IMG/VR virus record: IMGVR_UViG_2600255005_000004
Span: 1 to 7,971 of that record
Length of the DNA: 7,971 nt
From: a virus
Taxonomy: Duplodnaviria; Heunggongvirae; Uroviricota; Caudoviricetes
Strand: one strand, 5' to 3'
Position 1 is the first letter of the stretch. Every line of letters begins with the position of its first letter. The position numbers and the translations under genes are program-made. Shown here piece after piece: positions 666 through 7,971 of the stretch. The notes under the pieces are model-generated. The model saw only the letters and a program-made list of their open reading frames with translations, searched no databases and was not told the origin of the DNA.

Positions 666-1427
666 TCACTTTTCCGATGCAACATGGCGGGAAGAATCAG
701 TAATCTGTCGTACAATATCCCTGTGCTTGTTCAACTCACGCAGCGCGGCGCAGACACGCTCCCACTTCTGGAGATGATTTTTCGCCCGACGCAGTTCGCG
801 GTTTGCCATATGCAGTGATGGTAAAACCAGGTCATCCGCTCGCGTTTCAGTAAACGATGGCAGCGACTGCACAATGTCCGCCACAGTTTCTGTTTTAATA
901 TCTTCCTGTGTTGCAGCCTCCTGTACTGGTAACGCAACACCTGCGGTCTGAGGAAAGGCCTTACCATCAGTTTCCGCTACCGATGCTGCTTTCGGCTCTG
1001 CTGGTAAATTATCGCCCGGTATGCAGTAACGAAATTTACCGCCCTGATTTACGCGAATCAGACGACCTTTGCTGATTGCCATTGCCAGCGTTGAAGCCAC
1101 TTTGCGTGATGTGGTACCAAACAATGTAGCCAGCTCATCAGCCGTTTGTGGTCCTCGTTGTTCAATCGTCGCGGTTAAATCGCACTCTGAGATTTTCGCT
1201 ACTGTTGCTGTGGTGATTTCTTCCGGCAGTTCTGCCTGCGCTGGCTGTTCCTGCTGAATATTGTTATCAGCCACACGCCAGGTGTACGCGCTTTTATCAA
1301 CAAAACCAGCCTTTTTCAGTTCCCATAGTTCGTTCAGCACTTCTTCACGACTGATATCAAGTCGCGCAGCAAGTTCTATGGATGTGGCTTTTCCCATTGC
1401 TTTCAGTGCGTCAAAAACAGTCTCCAT
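666..1427 (-). CDS. hypothetical prophage protein (253 aa) with two winged-helix-like DNA-binding segments and an acidic linker
   Basis: Start chosen at ATG 1427 (METVFDALK...) with GGAG RBS 9 nt upstream. An alternative ATG at 1478 would overlap the DnaC-like gene by 29 nt. Two HTH-like segments ([30 protein letters not shown] and [35 protein letters not shown]) separated by an E/Q/A/T-rich linker. Family not recognised. Confidence 0.6.
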
Positions 1428-1449
1428 TAAATTTTTCTCCCGGTAAAAA

Positions 1450-2196
1450 TTACTTCGCAATTCCTGGCTGGACGACATTCGGACGCCAGCTCTCCCAGTT
1501 AAAATTCACCCATCGCCCGCCGTTCATGGTCATGCGATCCATAATCCGCTCGCCGAGCAATGTTTTCATGGCCTCATAGTTCAGGTTTGTCAGCATCCCC
1601 ACGCTGCGCATCGACGCTGTCCGGCGATCAACAATCTGGTGCAGTACCACCTGCTCGTTTTTCGTCTCGCGCTGAATGCCAATTTCATCAAGAACCAGCA
1701 GATCCACTTCGCATAGTTCCCGCAAAAATTTTTCGCCTGACTGCCCATCGTCATAGCTGGCGTGCAGGGCACTCATAACATCAGCCACGGTAACCACAAT
1801 CACTGTCTGACCGTCTTTCAGCAGGCGATTCCCGATAGCTGCCGCTAAGTGGTTCTTCCCGGTACCAGGTTTTCCGCTGAACGCAAAATTTGTACACCCG
1901 GTCATCAGTTCATCAGCGATGGATTTCGCCTGACTCAACGCGTATCGCTGCCCTTCGTTCTGCACCTGGTAATTCGAAAACGAGCATTTGCGGTGCAATG
2001 GCTGGATGCCAGAGCGATTCAGAATTTTTTCCACCCGCAACTGACGATTCTGACGGTTGATCTCCTCACAACGTTTCTGGCCTTCGGAAAGTTGCCACTC
2101 GCGCCACTCCGCTACCGTTTTGAATGGGGCGGTTACATGTGGCGGGGCCAGTCTGCGGATACGTTCAAGAATGCCGCCTGCCGCAATATTTTTCAT
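1450..2196 (-). CDS. DnaC/IstB-like AAA+ replicative helicase loader (YdaV-like prophage replication protein)
   Basis: Walker [16 protein letters not shown] and Walker B LLVLDEIG. 248 aa, close to the 246-aa YdaV of K-12 Rac as recalled. GGGGG RBS upstream of ATG 2196, 7 nt after the stop of the initiator gene. Confidence 0.9.
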
Positions 2197-2202
2197 GGTC
2201 AG

Positions 2203-2991
2203 TTACCCCCTGAAGCCTGGCGGGATCGCACTATCCGGTAACGAGACGGTGTTAACCTGTCGGAGTAACGTCTCAGGTCGAACACCTTTTGGCGCGAACA
2301 AGCCCTGGTATTCATTGGCGATGCTGTGTCGAATCACCTGCTCAGGTGAAAAACCCTGCTGGCGGAATTTTTCCAGCTCCCGTATCGCCCCGTTAGCGCC
2401 CTGCTCCGTTCGAATCGGTTTTCGCAATGCCTGCCTGAACTGAACCCACTCATGCCAGAGTGTTTCCGGCAACCAGTCAGGCAGCTCGATAGCCTCCGGT
2501 TCGAATTTTTTAGACGCTCGTTTTTGGCGAGGGGGATTTAGGGGGAGATAAGTATTTATATCTTCCTCTTTCTCTTCCTCTGGTAACGCTTTTTGATCCG
2601 TTTTTGTAACGCTGGCAGCGTTACCTTTTCGTTTCAGTTCTCGTATTTTTGTTACTCTCTCGTTTGTAACCGCCCGTTTTTTAGAGCTTTTCCCGTTATG
2701 GCGCTCAAAGTTAGGAAGCGACAACACACCATTAGTTTCGACCAGCCATCCAACCTGAATTAACGCATCAGCAAAACCAGCCATAAAAGTGATGCGATCT
2801 ATTGCACTTTTTGTAACGCCGCGAGCGTTACACTCTGCGTTACCGTCTATCATTTGTTGATCCGCCCATGCCCAGAAGCGAATGACTTTCCCTAATGCGG
2901 CATCTGGATCAATATTCAGAATCTCAGCAAGCCTGAATATTTCCGGCTTATCCGGCGTAATAACTTCGAGCTTTATCCAGTTTGAAGCCAT
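2203..2991 (-). CDS. prophage replication initiator, YdaU/lambda-O-like (262 aa)
   Basis: Sits immediately upstream of the DnaC-like loader, the O-then-P arrangement of lambdoid phages. AGGTGA RBS 6 nt before ATG 2991. K/E-rich central linker whose DNA carries GTAACGC palindromes and T tracts. Assignment is by synteny and architecture, not verified by search. Confidence 0.75.
   Translation of the reverse strand: MASNWIKLEVITPDKPEIFRLAEILNIDPDAALGKVIRFWAWADQQMIDGNAECNARGVTKSAIDRITFMAGFADALIQVGWLVETNGVLSLPNFERHNGKSSKKRAVTNERVTKIRELKRKGNAASVTKTDQKALPEEEKEEDINTYLPLNPPRQKRASKKFEPEAIELPDWLPETLWHEWVQFRQALRKPIRTEQGANGAIRELEKFRQQGFSPEQVIRHSIANEYQGLFAPKGVRPETLLRQVNTVSLPDSAIPPGFRG
2606..2624. repeat. 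19-bp palindrome GTAACGCTggcAGCGTTAC (copy 1, inside initiator coding sequence)
   Basis: Perfect 8-bp inverted arms read directly. Sits in a cluster of GTAAC/GTTAC half-sites with T tracts between 2583 and 2670. Confidence 0.7.
2813..2831. repeat. 19-bp palindrome GTAACGCcgcgaGCGTTAC (copy 2, inside initiator coding sequence)
   Basis: 7-bp perfect arms with flanking T...A; an extra GCGTTAC half-site lies at 2837-2843. Confidence 0.7.
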
Positions 2992-3004
2992 TTGTTTTCA
3001 CCTT

Positions 3005-3023
3005 GTAACGCTCGCAGCGTTAC
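3005..3023. repeat. 19-bp palindrome GTAACGCTcgcAGCGTTAC (copy 3, in the ydaT-ydaU intergenic region, 14 bp upstream of the initiator ATG)
   Basis: Perfect 8-bp arms, extendable to 9 bp (TGTAACGCT / AGCGTTACA). Same motif as copies 1 and 2 at roughly 200-bp spacing. Confidence 0.7.
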
Positions 3024-3033
3024 ATTTAACTGA

Positions 3034-3055
3034 TACCGAACAAAACAGTTCGGTA
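3034..3055. repeat. perfect palindrome TACCGAAC-aaaaca-GTTCGGTA between the ydaT-like stop and the initiator start
   Basis: 8-bp perfect inverted arms with 6-nt spacer read directly. No flanking U-tract in either orientation, so more likely a protein-binding site or attenuating hairpin than a canonical terminator. Confidence 0.5.
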
Positions 3056-3068
3056 CGATTAATTTCAA

Positions 3069-3491
3069 TCAATGCACTACGACAGAATCGCTAGGAGAAC
3101 CGCCGCCGCTGAAATGTGCTTTACGGTAAACGGCCTGGACTGCATCATCATGCGCATCAATTGCCGTACTCAGTGCATCCTGTGCCGCCAGTAATGCACG
3201 GCGTTCCAGGGTATCGAAGATGCAGAGTCGGTGACGCAGCTCGCGAGGAAGAATTGCCAGAACCGCAGGGATCAGTTTCTGAATTTTTTCCCTTTGCGCA
3301 TTCGTTTCACCTTTCAACCAACGATGATAGATATTCTGCTGATTGTTCCAGTCCTTGCCTGGTACCAGGGGCAATTCGCCGCCCCCCTGGCGCAGATATT
3401 CTTCAGTAATTGCGTTAGCGACCCACGCCTGCCCTTTTTCGGCTGCCAGGGCTAACAACACTGATTCGATGTGCTCATGCTTGATTTTCAT
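3069..3491 (-). CDS. YdaT-like protein (CII-analogous regulator / toxic-when-derepressed family), 140 aa
   Basis: 140 aa, the same length as K-12 YdaT, beginning MKIKHEHI. Directly downstream of the Cro-like gene with ATGA start/stop overlap (3488-3491). Position is equivalent to cII/ydaT in Rac and CP-933P-type immunity regions. Confidence 0.65.
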   Translation of the reverse strand: MKIKHEHIESVLLALAAEKGQAWVANAITEEYLRQGGGELPLVPGKDWNNQQNIYHRWLKGETNAQREKIQKLIPAVLAILPRELRHRLCIFDTLERRALLAAQDALSTAIDAHDDAVQAVYRKAHFSGGGSPSDSVVVH

Positions 3492-3742
3492 GAATCAACT
3501 CCCATCAGCTTTTTCGTAGTAGTTTTATTTCTGCCAATAGTTAAAATTGCATCGGCAGAAAATAATCCGTTTGATGCATGAGCGATTTTTTCAGCGTAAT
3601 TTGTTTCGCCGGTATATTCTGTGCGAGGCAATTTTCCGTTATCCATCCATTTGTAGATTGCTCTTTGGCTGACACCACAAACGTCGGCCACAACAGAAAC
3701 GCGAACAGTTTTGATTACATCTTCAAGTGTTTTCTGGTTCAT
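3488..3742 (-). CDS. Cro/YdaS-like helix-turn-helix regulator (84 aa)
   Basis: HTH segment VADVCGVSQRAIYKWMDNGKLP. Start placed at ATG 3742 (MNQKTLEDV...) with GAGGG RBS. The upstream ATG at 3814 adds a Cys-rich junk-like N-terminus and lies inside the operator region. Divergent from the repressor gene. Confidence 0.75.
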   Translation of the reverse strand: MNQKTLEDVIKTVRVSVVADVCGVSQRAIYKWMDNGKLPRTEYTGETNYAEKIAHASNGLFSADAILTIGRNKTTTKKLMGVDS

Positions 3743-3757
3743 ATCACCCTCACAATG

Positions 3758-3829
3758 TGAACTTTGAGTACATGCTATAACAGAACTGACAGTACATTCA
3801 AGAGCGAATATCATTGAACTTATGGTTCA
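3758..3829. promoter_or_regulatory. OR-like divergent promoter/operator region: three 15-bp operator-like sites plus candidate back-to-back promoters
   Basis: Sites TGAACTttgAGTACA (3758-3772), AGAACTgacAGTACA (3782-3796) and TGAACTtatGGTTCA (3815-3829, overlapping the repressor ATG). Candidate repressor promoter: -35 CTGACA 3786-3791, 17-bp spacer, -10 TATCAT 3809-3814, start near the ATG. Candidate cro-side promoter on - strand: -35 TTGAAT (3796-3801), 16-bp spacer, -10 TATAGC (3774-3779). Confidence 0.55.
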
Positions 3830-4360: not shown

Positions 4361-4528
4361 ATACCTACCAACCCACCCCGCCCCACAGAACGCCGGGCAA
4401 TACTTCGAGTTACCAGGCAGTGGTCAGGGGTTAAGTAGCCAGCCCGAGGCGTATGAACATGACGGCGGGATTCAAATTTTGCAGTGCAGCAGTTAGTTCC
4501 GCCACCCGGCGTTAAGGGGATAGATAAG

Positions 4529-4663
4529 ATGGTGCATTACGAAGTAGTTCAGTATTTGATGGATTGTTGCGGTATCACTTACAACCAGGCTGTGCAGGCT
4601 TTACGCAGCAACGACTGGGATCTCTGGCAGGCAGAAGTCGCTATACGTAGCAACAAGATGTGA
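4529..4663 (+). CDS. ydaG: small protein YdaG-like (44 aa)
   Basis: Below the ORF-track size cutoff. AAGGGGA RBS 8 nt upstream of the ATG. Clean 44-aa protein-like sequence (MVHYEVVQYLMDCCGITYNQAVQALRSNDWDLWQAEVAIRSNKM). Size and position next to the repressor match ydaG of Rac. Confidence 0.6.
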   Translation: MVHYEVVQYLMDCCGITYNQAVQALRSNDWDLWQAEVAIRSNKM

Positions 4664-4673
4664 GATTCGCAAA

Positions 4674-4829
4674 ATGCAAAAAATCGACCTCGGCAACAAC
4701 GAATCCCTGGTGTGCGGCGTGTTCCCCAACCAGGATGGAACGTTCACTGCCATGACGTATACCAAAAGCAAAACATTTAAAACCGAAACTGGTGCGCGCC
4801 GATGGTTGGAGAAGCACACAGTAAGCTAA
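4674..4829 (+). CDS. ydaF: small protein YdaF-like (51 aa)
   Basis: Below the ORF-track cutoff. 51 aa (MQKIDLGNNESLVCGVFPNQDGTF...), 10 nt after the ydaG stop. Size and position match ydaF of Rac. Its 3' end overlaps the 3' end of convergent sieB by 4 bp. Confidence 0.6.
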   Translation: MQKIDLGNNESLVCGVFPNQDGTFTAMTYTKSKTFKTETGARRWLEKHTVS

Positions 4830-5314
4830 CGATTAAAACGTCTACTCCTGCTGTTCCAGAATAACTTCATAAAATGGGAGTATTTTTCGGTGACGAGATA
4901 ATAAGAACAGTTTGCGCTATCACTCTGATGTTGAATGATGCCCTTCCGTTCTAATTTTTTCATAACCGGGTTACGGCAAGGAGAAGTGATAATAAGATTT
5001 CCTGTTTTAAGGAAATCTTTAAATACAGCGATTTCTTTCTCAGATAAACGAAGCAATACTCGTTGCTCTGGTAGTAATGAATAATGCTTTTGAATATGTG
5101 CTCGCAATCTTGAGAAGGAAATGGCGACCACGAAAGAAAAGGCAAAAACGATAATCTGAAAGAGCCAAGGTATTTCAGTATAAGCATTGAATGCGACAGT
5201 AAACTCTTTCGGTATCAGCCAGAGAGTGAGACCAAAAATGATAATCGTATACATAAGTCTTTCGAGTGGCTCGTTAGCAAAAAGTTTCAACAATGGAGTA
5301 AATACATCCAACAT
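4826..5314 (-). CDS. sieB: superinfection exclusion protein B (SieB), 162 aa membrane protein
   Basis: Start at internal ATG 5314 (MLDVFTPLLKLF...) gives 162 aa, the length recalled for SieB. Two hydrophobic TM-like segments. Antisense to the early-left operon between ydaF and kilR, as in Rac. Confidence 0.75.
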   Translation of the reverse strand: MLDVFTPLLKLFANEPLERLMYTIIIFGLTLWLIPKEFTVAFNAYTEIPWLFQIIVFAFSFVVAISFSRLRAHIQKHYSLLPEQRVLLRLSEKEIAVFKDFLKTGNLIITSPCRNPVMKKLERKGIIQHQSDSANCSYYLVTEKYSHFMKLFWNSRSRRFNR

Positions 5315-5532
5315 ATCAATAACTCTCAACTGTAAGGGTATTGAAATGTTAACACAAGCTCTCGCTGTAGGGGTATAGCCGAGACCACCGAAGCCCGGAG
5401 GTGGTGAAATAAAACCGGGCACAACACGAAGGCGCATTTCCGATATCCATAAAGAGTCGGTCTTGTCTGTTAAATTTAAATGGTGGGAGTGCGCCTCCGG
5501 TTGTAAATAACGACATTGCTGTGTGTAGTCCT

Positions 5533-5580
5533 GGCGGCATCAGTTTTTTTCTTGAAGTTCGGCTGATGTCCGCCCTTTTT
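5533..5580 (+). terminator. candidate intrinsic terminator or attenuator in the sieB-kilR intergenic region
   Basis: GGCGGCATCAG (5533-5543) pairs with CTGATGTCCGCC (5563-5574), 11 bp with one bulge, followed by CTTTTT. The 19-nt loop is long for a classical terminator. Orientation fits the + strand early-left transcript upstream of kilR. Confidence 0.4.
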
Positions 5581-5755
5581 AAAGTGAATTTTGTGATGCG
5601 GTGAATGCGGCTAAGCGCACGTGGCACAGTTAAAAGTCATGTTAGTCCTTATTGGTTTGGGTGGGAAAGCCGACTGTAATTGTTAACTGGTTGCAGTCAC
5701 CTGGAGGCACCAGGCACCGCATCAACAAAGTTCATTTGTAAAAATGGAGATAATT

Positions 5756-5977
5756 ATGATTGCACATCACTTCGGAACTGATGAAATACCACGTCAGTGT
5801 GTGACTCCTGGTGACTATGTTCTTCATGAAGGCCGGACATATATTGCCTCGGCAAACAATATTAAAAAGCGAAAACTTTATATTCGTAACCTGACCACAA
5901 AAACATGCATTACTGACTGCATGATTAAAGTCTTCCTCGGTCGTAATGGTTTACCTGTAAAGGCGGAGTCATGGTGA
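5756..5977 (+). CDS. kilR: KilR-like cell-division inhibitor (73 aa)
   Basis: Start at ATG 5756 ([10 protein letters not shown]...) with GGAG RBS 7 nt upstream gives 73 aa, the recalled KilR length. Divergent from sieB and followed by ydaE and racC as in Rac. Confidence 0.7.
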
Positions 5978-6147
5978 TGACTAAGAAAATAAAATGTGCT
6001 TACCACCTTTGCAATAAAGAAATTGAAGAAAGCAAAAGTATTAAAAGACCACTTCATTTCATGCGTGGAGTTATCCAAACGACGGAAATGAAAAAATATT
6101 GTAGTGAAAGTTGTGCCGAAAAAGACCAGATGGCACACGAACTTTAA
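5977..6147 (+). CDS. ydaE: YdaE-like small zinc-ribbon protein (56 aa)
   Basis: Below the ORF-track cutoff. ATG overlaps the kilR stop (TGATG). Two Cys pairs, CAYHLC and CSESC, suggest a zinc ribbon. 56 aa matches recalled ydaE. Confidence 0.65.
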   Translation: MTKKIKCAYHLCNKEIEESKSIKRPLHFMRGVIQTTEMKKYCSESCAEKDQMAHEL

Positions 6148-6220
6148 TTAACTGACTATGCGAAACTGAATTTATGCCAGCAATGGCAGGGACTCGCTCA
6201 ACCTTAATTAAGGAGAAAAC

Positions 6221-6469
6221 ATGATTACCAGTTATGAGGCCACTGTTGTAACTACTGATGACATTGTTCACGAGGTTAATCTGGAAGGAAAGCGTATTGG
6301 CTACGTGATTAAAACAGAAAATAAAGAAACCCCATTCACTGTGGTTGATATCGACGGTCCATCAGGCAACGTTAAAACACTTCACGAAGGTGTCAAAAAA
6401 ATGTGCCTGGTGCATACCGGAAAGAATCTGCCCGCAAGAAAAAAAAAGCCGAATTTCTGGCAACTCTAA
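6221..6469 (+). CDS. racC: RacC-like protein; C-terminus altered at an A9 homopolymer (82 aa in zero frame)
   Basis: Strong RBS (AAGGAG) before ATG 6221. Position between ydaE and recE as in Rac. An A9 run (6439-6447) precedes a short PNFWQL stop tail, whereas the -1 frame continues as AEFLATLIAMKIKR to a stop at 6490-6492, giving about 90 aa. Confidence 0.7.
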   Translation: MITSYEATVVTTDDIVHEVNLEGKRIGYVIKTENKETPFTVVDIDGPSGNVKTLHEGVKKMCLVHTGKNLPARKKKPNFWQL

Positions 6470-6504
6470 TTGCAATGAAAATTAAAAGGTGAAATCTGAA
6501 AGAA

Positions 6505-6529
6505 ATAGCCTGCGTATGGCGCAGGCTAT
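6505..6529. other. perfect 10-bp stem, 5-nt loop hairpin ATAGCCTGCG-tatgg-CGCAGGCTAT between racC and recE
   Basis: Read directly. No U-tract on the + strand; the - strand flank is only weakly T-rich. Function unclear. Confidence 0.35.
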
Positions 6530-6600
6530 GAACAGTGTGTATCCGGCAAGATCATTCACTGAACAAAACGAATTTTAATCTGAGTTGAGGTTAAAAAACA

Positions 6601-7971
6601 ATGAGCACAAAACCACTCTTCCTGTTACGGAAAGCGAAAAAATCATCCGGTGAACCTGACGTCGTCCTGTGGGCAAGCGACGATTTTGAATCGACCTGTG
6701 CCACTCTGGACTACCTGATCGTTAAGTCAGGTAAAAAACTGAGCAACTATTTTAAAGCTGTTGCCACAAATTTTCCTGTCGTTAATGACCTTCCCCCTGA
6801 AGGTGAGATCGATTTTACCTGGAGTGAACGCTATCAACTCAGCAAAGACTCCATGACATGGGAACTAAAACCGGGAGCAGCGCCAGACGACGTTCACCAC
6901 CAGGATAATGCTCAAGAAACCAACGAACTGGCGGGAGGCCAGGAAGAAAACGCGCAGGCAGACGCCCACGAGGATTGCCAGGATTGCGAAGTCTCTGTAG
7001 CCACTTTGCGGTTCACACAGCGTCTTCTGCACATTTTTACGTATGCGGCCGGGGATCGGAAATACCTGCATCATGCCACCCGAGAACAACGCGAACACAT
7101 TACTGCTCTTGAGATGGATCAGGAAAACAGCTATGTCCAGAATCTGCTGTTGGCCATACGCGGCATGGCAGAACCGACAACTCTGGATAATGCCGCCCTG
7201 CTCCACCTGACTGATGCAATTAAGGCAGTTTTCTCTATCACTAAAAAACATCAGCCCTATGAATTTAAGAATTTCATTTCAGCCTGGCTGGATACCGAAC
7301 ACATTGATCGCGGTCTTCTGACAAAAGAATGGCGAAAAGGGAATCGTGTTTCACGCATCACTCGCACGGCTTCCGGTGCTAATGCTGGCGGCGGGAACCT
7401 CACAGATCGCGGCGAAGGTTTCGTCCACGATCTGACGTCACTGGCGCGCGATATAGCCACTGGCGTACTGGCCCGTTCAATGGACGTGGACATCTATAAC
7501 CTTCATCCGGCACACGCTAAACGCATTGAGGAAATTATCGCTGAAAATAAACCGCCCTTTTCTGTTTTCCGCGACAAATTCATCACCATGCCTGGCGGGC
7601 TGGATTATTCCCGCGCCATCGTGGTTGCGTCCGTGAAAGAAGCACCAATTGGGATCGAGGTCATCCCCGCTCACGTCACTGCATATCTGAACAAAGTACT
7701 GACTGAAACCGATCATGCCAACCCTGATCCGGAAATCGTGGATATTGCCTGCGGTCGCTCCTCTGCCCCGATGCCGCAGCGAGTAACAGAAGAAGGAAAA
7801 CAGGATGATGAAGAAAAACTGCAACCATCTGGAACAACGGCAGCGTTTTTATGCCTGGCGAATTGCCTGTTCAACCTCAAAGCGATTTGTCACTTTGCTG
7901 TCGATTTTCACGTAAGCCGAATGTTCTTCTTCTGCAATCAACACTTCTTTGACGCCAGCCGTTTCCAGTAA
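6601..7971 (+). pseudogene. recE: recE (exonuclease VIII) N-terminal fragment, disrupted after about codon 411; the remaining ORF is antisense read-through of a convergent gene
   Basis: N-terminus [26 protein letters not shown]... and the segment [38 protein letters not shown]... match RecE of Rac as recalled. After ...EEKLQPSG (about 7833) the translation turns Cys/Phe-rich and junk-like while the opposite strand encodes a clean protein C-terminus. The C-terminal nuclease domain of the roughly 866-aa RecE is absent. Confidence 0.7.
7849..7971 (-). CDS. 3' end (last 40 codons) of an unidentified convergent gene; the gene start lies beyond the window
   Basis: Minus-strand frame reads ...[40 protein letters not shown] with stop at 7849-7851. 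Soluble-protein-like composition, while the sense recE frame degenerates in the same interval. Confidence 0.45.

Follow-up and report, generated by a model that had tools for sequence, protein, structure and literature searches.

On comparison with its orthologues, the racC copy in the window (the whole stretch of DNA analysed, 7,971 nt) is best read as an ordinary disrupted copy of a known prophage gene at a known type of hot spot. Three single A's are inserted near its 3' end. They are probably sequencing or assembly errors, in which case the 82-aa ORF would misrepresent an intact 91-aa racC. Programmed recoding is not supported: a programmed frameshift is neither needed nor indicated, and its existence here is extremely improbable. 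In public genomes, equivalent alleles already carry a frameshift annotation. The features of the locus are as follows.

6210-6215, plus strand: racC ribosome-binding site AAGGAG, read from the sequence, 5 nt upstream of the ATG at 6221 and conserved in orthologues.
6221-6469, plus strand: zero-frame racC ORF of 82 aa ending in PNFWQL, with ATG at 6221 and stop TAA at 6467-6469.
6436-6437, plus strand: extra A number 1, GCAG in all relatives and GCAAG here, from pairwise comparison with JNEC-KY178 and E. ruysiae CABVLQ01.
6439-6447, plus strand: tract of nine A's, where the intact gene has A8, the additional base being extra A number 2; a known type of indel/slippage hot spot.
6442-6448, plus strand: A_AAA_AAG heptamer, zero-frame codons AGA AAA AAA AAG, phased for tandem -1 slippage.
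6448-6492, plus strand: 3' part of the ancestral racC coding sequence, here in the -1 frame, AEFLATLIAMKIKR, with stop TGA at 6490-6492.
6478-6481, plus strand: extra A number 3, ATGAAATTA in relatives and ATGAAAATTA here, from pairwise comparison; relatives read ATG AAA TTA.
6497-6499, plus strand: ancestral racC stop position (GGT GAA ATC TGA), from alignment with the K-12 racC CDS.

The 82-aa ORF ending in PNFWQL, the A9 run and the in-frame heptamer all lay where the preliminary description had placed them. The C-terminal sequence of the ORF is ...LPARKKKPNFWQL. The A9 run is the longest homopolymer of the window. In the -1 frame the continuation reads KKKAEFLATLIAMKIKR-stop and the product has 90 aa; the identical protein results whether the ribosome shifts by -1 or the mRNA gains one A. 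When one A was added at the A9 run, the reading became …RKKKAEFLATLIAMKIKR and the ancestral ORF was restored except for its last 5 residues, which are non-native because of the third inserted A.

Both products were scored with the NCBIfam RacC model NF007306 (91 positions, curated cutoff 171 bits). The zero-frame product (82 aa) matched profile positions 1-76 and, at 164.7 bits, stayed below the cutoff. The -1 frame product (90 aa) obtained 186.9 bits, above the cutoff, over positions 1-88, and regained positions 77-88. K-12 RacC (91 aa) obtained 206.1 bits over positions 1-91. The gain from 164.7 to 186.9 bits bears out the earlier claim that the -1 reading, ending at 6490-6492, is protein-like. 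Scoring with PHROG 4778 gave the same pattern. A Pfam search returned a sub-threshold DUF2969 match alone, which is uninformative. Judged by the profile scores, the locus is racC and the annotated ORF is a truncated member of the family. In protein alignments the locus is about 93% identical to JNEC-type RacC and 89% identical to K-12 RacC. As recorded, the window copy lacks the last 15 native residues and has 6 out-of-frame residues instead. The K-12 racC CDS has 276 nt and encodes 91 aa; the length of 91 aa, given in the preliminary description, was confirmed in this CDS and in the orthologues. RacC is reported to be the strongest blocker of the retron-Sen2 toxin RcaT, and the adjacent recE to be the trigger (Bobonis et al., bioRxiv 10.1101/2020.06.22.160242).

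The native part of the -1 tail, AEFLATLIAMK (6448-6480), is identical in orthologues and forms a hydrophobic stretch flanked by lysines. The agreement of the -1 tail with real RacC goes far beyond what chance would give. The tail had been described as a native amphipathic helix. Its native character stood over AEFLATLIAMK. Its IKR end is non-native, and the helical hydrophobic moment was not above that of shuffles, so that no amphipathicity was measurable.

The window is identical in sequence comparison to positions 3781-11751 of a 20-kb stretch from AEMF01000001.1. Two papers assign this accession to Escherichia sp. TW11588, a member of cryptic clade IV that is now classified in E. ruysiae. 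Among about 15 billion proteins, the 82-aa product had an exact match on one contig only, AEMF01000001.1 (GCA_000208585.2), in NCBI only. The TW11588 record is a 2011-era draft genome. The genome paper is that of Luo et al. (PNAS, 2011), and the assembly may be a 454 and/or hybrid one. The genes follow a Rac-like prophage order (ydaU/V/T/S, repressor, ydaF, sieB, kilR, ydaE, racC, recE). The order racR-ydaF-sieB-kilR-ydaE-racC-recE is the same in K-12 and JNEC-KY178, with racC between ydaE and recE. The spacer between the ribosome-binding site and the ATG (6216-6220) is GGAGAAAAC in the window and in JNEC-KY178, one A shorter than the GGAGAAAAAC found upstream of the racC ATG in K-12, strain 746 and APEC 102026. 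This difference in the A-run of the spacer is common to a finished genome and is presumably real. At the left end of the prophage (940-3805 of the 20-kb AEMF01000001.1 stretch), a Peptidase_S8 gene and an AAA ATPase gene are paired and adjoin a tRNA-synthetase class Ib gene; the pair may be a defence-type cargo module. At 4377-7843 the prophage segment has 99.9% identity with both E. coli JNEC-KY178 and the representative genome of E. ruysiae. The core DNA flanking the prophage is only about 92.5% identical to that of E. coli. A Rac-like prophage has therefore been shared between Escherichia species in the very recent past.

Positions 4377-7843 of the window (3,467 nt) were compared base by base with E. 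coli JNEC-KY178, and positions 4721-7843 (3,123 nt) with the E. ruysiae species-representative genome NZ_CABVLQ010000001.1. Over the 3,467 nt, the window differs from JNEC-KY178 by three inserted A's and one substitution, at 6673. The comparison with E. ruysiae over 3,123 nt gave these four changes and no others. The three single-A insertions all lie inside 42 nt at the racC 3' end, and each extends an existing A or A-run. In the four E. coli genomes aligned, the gene is read in a single frame from CCC GCA GAA AAA AAA GCC... to ATC TGA, with A8 in frame. The full 3' reading of the orthologues is GCC GAA TTT CTG GCA ACT CTA ATT GCA ATG AAA TTA AAA GGT GAA ATC TGA. Their 91-aa RacC reads ...AEKKAEFLATLIAMKLKGEI with no shift required, and the uninterrupted frame is …PAEKKAEFLATLIAMKLKGEI. 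Twenty further variants were drawn from the two 90%-identity clusters holding RacC; 19 of them end in …FLATLIAM…GEI, and the exception is a truncated 76-aa variant. On these alignments the -1 frame of the window is the ancestral RacC frame. The longer frame is thus the conserved one, a point on which the preliminary description had looked to orthologues, and it is at the A9 run that the gene is disrupted.

With the first two inserted A's (net +2), the native C-terminus falls into the -1 frame, and A_AAA_AAG comes into phase by accident. In the intact gene the tract is read gaA AAA AAA Gcc, with AAAAAAG out of phase; the phased heptamer is created only by the inserted A's. Since three A's are inserted, it is a -1 and not a +1 shift that restores the frame, and the end of the -1 product is non-native. 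Because of extra A number 3, the -1 frame ends in IKR where the native protein has LKGEI. Taken together, the three insertions (net +3) were also considered as a compensated frameshift. This was rejected, as the TAA at 6467-6469 in the shifted segment precedes the third insertion.

The tract was surveyed in 5,426 complete E. coli genomes, 1,659 of which carry the racC 3' segment. Query alleles of 89-92 nt were used, in which tract length alone was varied. One difference lowers the identity to at most 98.9%, so that the band at 99% or above counts exact matches. Metagenome and IMG/VR viral contigs were examined by a gapped-pattern scan. The counts per tract length were:

Complete E. coli genomes, exact matches: A7 18, A8 1,121, A9 38, A10 15 (1,192 exact of 1,659; the rest carry SNPs).
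Metagenome contigs (n = 64): A7 3, A8 60, A9 1, A10 0, other 0.
IMG/VR viral contigs (n = 119): A7 8, A8 105, A9 4, A10 0, interrupted 2 (GAAAATAAA).

The window allele was present in none of the 1,659 complete E. coli genomes carrying the segment. Nor was the exact allele found in the metagenome and viral collections, including the 183 scanned contigs. GCAAG, the form with extra A number 1, occurred in 0 of these 183 metagenome and viral contigs. The third site is AAA in all 170 contigs with GCAATG(A)nTTAAAAGG, and the other 13 of the 183 are divergent there or do not contain the segment. The complete-genome match closest to the window's 101 nt retains two gaps; of the three extra A's, at most one is therefore present in any complete E. 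coli genome.

The A9 allele occurs on two SNP backgrounds, and several apparently clonal isolates have it in common. Isolates from a common sequencing series are among those with A9 and A10 alleles. With A7 or A10, the tail would be PNFWQL, as in the window. The three A9 alleles inspected are annotated as frameshifted by PGAP (NCBI). Examples of racC copies annotated in this way in complete E. coli genomes are those of APEC 102026, WP4-S18-ESBL-07 and EC6563; they affect the same gene at the same tract by a change from A8 to A9. These alleles have the tract insertion alone, which leads to the +1 frame and the tail SRISGNSNCNEIKR, whereas the window has two further A's and hence PNFWQL. A second, divergent racC-like copy was seen in Shigella flexneri SFBU1023 and E. 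coli ECMA0423 (80% aa identity over residues 25-91). These second copies have GCAG and A7 at the same tract (about 1640-1660 of the compared stretches), one base short, with an apparent frameshift. On this distribution of alleles, the racC tract is a hot spot of recurrent indels or of sequencing noise, or of the two together.

These data bear directly on programmed recoding, that is, a dnaX-type -1 shift on A_AAA_AAG or programmed slippage on A9 with products of 82 and 90 aa. The heptamer is correctly phased, and the conserved C-terminus is encoded in the -1 frame. The A9 run is slippage-prone, having the length (at least 9) at which slippage is expected in many bacteria (PMC1088944). Against this, the relatives have A8 in frame and one 91-aa ORF, and the split-frame arrangement is therefore not conserved. 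A8 was found in 1,121 exact complete-genome matches, in 60/64 metagenome contigs and in 105/119 viral contigs, and AAAAAAG is out of phase in the intact gene. The heptamer occurs once in the window, fewer times than the 3.98 expected from dinucleotide shuffles; its occurrence is not beyond chance. The allele is unique to one draft assembly. An interruption of the A-run, which had been proposed as a point to look for in orthologues, was seen in 2/119 viral contigs (GAAAATAAA), which speaks against recoding; elsewhere A8 in frame was mostly found. Programmed slippage is recognized by conservation, among homologues, of both the run length and the disrupted-ORF arrangement (Baranov et al., 2005, PMC1088944). 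For racC, A8 in frame is the norm and the tract varies from A7 to A10.

Stimulators of the dnaX type were sought, namely a Shine-Dalgarno-like element about 10 nt 5' of the heptamer and/or a stable stem-loop or pseudoknot 5-8 nt 3' of it. The 20 nt upstream of the heptamer (aaagaatctgcccgcaagaa) contain no GGAGG- or AGGGAG-like Shine-Dalgarno element. RNA folding of the sequence 3' of the heptamer gave a weak 4+4 bp hairpin alone nearby and no stable one at the required distance. One further structure lies beyond the gene:

6505-6529, no strand assigned: perfect 11-bp hairpin between racC and recE, arms ATAGCCTGCGC…GCGCAGGCTAT, 56 nt beyond the heptamer.

This hairpin is conserved in all relatives aligned. 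It has a T-rich tail on the minus strand only and thus scores as terminator-like for the opposite strand. It was rejected as a frameshift stimulator, since it is 56 nt away and lies after both stop codons. The programmed -1 frameshift or transcriptional slippage put forward in the preliminary description was thus not upheld: orthologues read straight through A8, stimulators are absent and the allele belongs to a single assembly. The alternatives mentioned there, a frameshift mutation or a homopolymer error, are favoured by the evidence.

Error is probably the better explanation of the two. Homopolymer over-calls in a poorly covered AT-rich stretch would have added the three A's; TW11588 itself would have an intact racC, and nothing would be recoded. 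Several observations argue for this. Three additions of the same base, each beside the same base, within 42 nt are the signature of homopolymer over-calling. Only one SNP besides the insertions separates the window from a conspecific over 3.1 kb. The sites of extra A's 1 and 3 are short, non-hypermutable and invariant in the other sequences examined. The triple-insertion allele was found in a single draft assembly. Finally, the record resembles an unfinished pseudo-chromosome at two places. In the first, recE matches its relatives only to 7843, and from 7844 the sequence continues as the 3' end of the core gene yajR (minus strand), with no N spacer. This junction at 7843/7844 corresponds to 11623/11624 of the 20-kb AEMF01000001.1 stretch. 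With about 92.5% identity to E. coli, the yajR part is at the level expected of E. ruysiae core DNA. It follows from the junction that the '456-aa' recE ORF would be a chimera reading into antisense yajR. Either two contigs of a draft pseudo-chromosome were joined here without a mark, or the sequence was truly rearranged. In the second, ampG is cut beside an IS in the TW11588 record.

Two findings count against error. The 20-kb neighbourhood has no other broken genes, and about 3.4 kb around racC are without further indels. The assembly is thus not generally noisy, and an error must be given a local cause. In addition, the change from A8 to A9 is present in other public genomes (38 complete genomes), so that at least the tract change could be real. 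What was observed directly is that three A's are inserted, that they are unique to this record, that relatives have an intact frame and that stimulators are absent; that the insertions are errors and not mutations is a step that we infer.

Real mutations are a possible, though clearly less probable, explanation. racC would then be decaying in a cryptic Rac-like prophage and would have been hit first at A8. The lesion would possibly be leaky, and not programmed: transcriptional slippage adding one A, or low-level -1 ribosomal slippage, would give the 90-aa …PARKKKAEFLATLIAMKIKR. Naturally occurring alleles mark the tract as a hot spot (A7 18, A9 38 and A10 15 against A8 1,121), and Illumina-type metagenome contigs give a tract-length pattern of the same kind. 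The two SNP backgrounds of A9 and the PGAP annotation of the three inspected A9 alleles as frameshifted also fit mutation. 'Pseudo pseudogenes' resulting from a change of 8A to 9A are documented, and 9 nt is a length of significant slippage in many bacteria (PMC1088944). The +1 slippage product would recover NF007306 positions 77-88. However, three independent additions of A in 42 nt are very improbable, two of them being at the non-hypermutable sites of extra A's 1 and 3, and one SNP alone was accumulated over 3.1 kb in the same period. The allele is also confined to one assembly. As for rescue by leakiness, heptamers devoid of stimulators have shift rates in E. coli of only about 2-10 times the 0.055% background (PMC4066793).

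The variation in tract length also raises the question of a phase-variable switch, in which replication slippage on the racC poly-A would toggle RacC on (A8) or off (A7, A9, A10), the window being 'off'. Polymorphism between A7 and A10 of the kind that would switch the ORF on and off among strains is present, and part of it is perhaps sequencing error. It affects about 6% of the complete genomes matching one of the four tract alleles exactly, and length variants make up 6-10% of the metagenome and viral contigs. The function of RacC is also conditional and related to conflict (RcaT blocker, recE trigger; bioRxiv 10.1101/2020.06.22.160242). A switch is nevertheless very unlikely. A8 is short for a contingency tract, and alleles of 'off' length are a small minority. 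Homopolymer errors in long reads may account for much of the length variation. Selection on Rac, a cryptic prophage, is weak, and the two extra A's outside the tract are left unexplained. There is just as slim a chance that tract-length variation, with slippage on A9 and A10, would tune the dose of full-length RacC, the TW11588 allele being a 'dimmed' state.

Under the preferred reading of a disrupted copy, the biological weight of this racC is small: both the gene and the type of hot spot are known, and the copy comes from a single draft assembly. A caution follows for similar cases. A phased A_AAA_AAG and a protein-like -1 frame can come from one inserted homopolymer base, and a comparison with orthologues quickly settles such cases. 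If the lesion were true, it would be another '8A to 9A pseudo pseudogene' and might deserve a glance, given the anti-retron role of RacC. What is mildly interesting beyond this is the polymorphism of racC tract length across E. coli, in view of the recent description of this role.

The known systems closest to the window copy are the 'pseudo pseudogenes' (Baranov et al., 2005, Genome Biol 6:R25; PMC1088944). As in the window, their homologues have a single ORF with A8, and the gene is disrupted by A9. In these genes a single A added to the mRNA brings back the ancestral frame, and in the window copy it would do likewise. The window differs from them in its net +2 (one A in the tract and one just before it) and in a third A downstream, which blocks the full native end. 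E. coli dnaX has the identical heptamer A_AAA_AAG in the same phase as the window. dnaX has an upstream Shine-Dalgarno-like element and a downstream stem-loop, whereas the window is without stimulators at the required distances. In addition, the heptamer and the two-frame layout of the window are absent from its orthologues, and the shift in dnaX truncates the product while a shift in racC would extend it. Programmed transcriptional slippage on poly-A/T is represented by the A9 of Thermus thermophilus dnaX, by IS element orfAB and by the A11 of Citrobacter rodentium tssM1 (PMC4256274). As in these systems, the A9 of the window is in the sense strand and is soon followed by a premature stop, and the ORF that carries on from it encodes the conserved C-terminal part. 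In the programmed systems, the run and the split ORF are conserved and both products have been demonstrated, whereas the relatives of racC mostly have A8 in frame.
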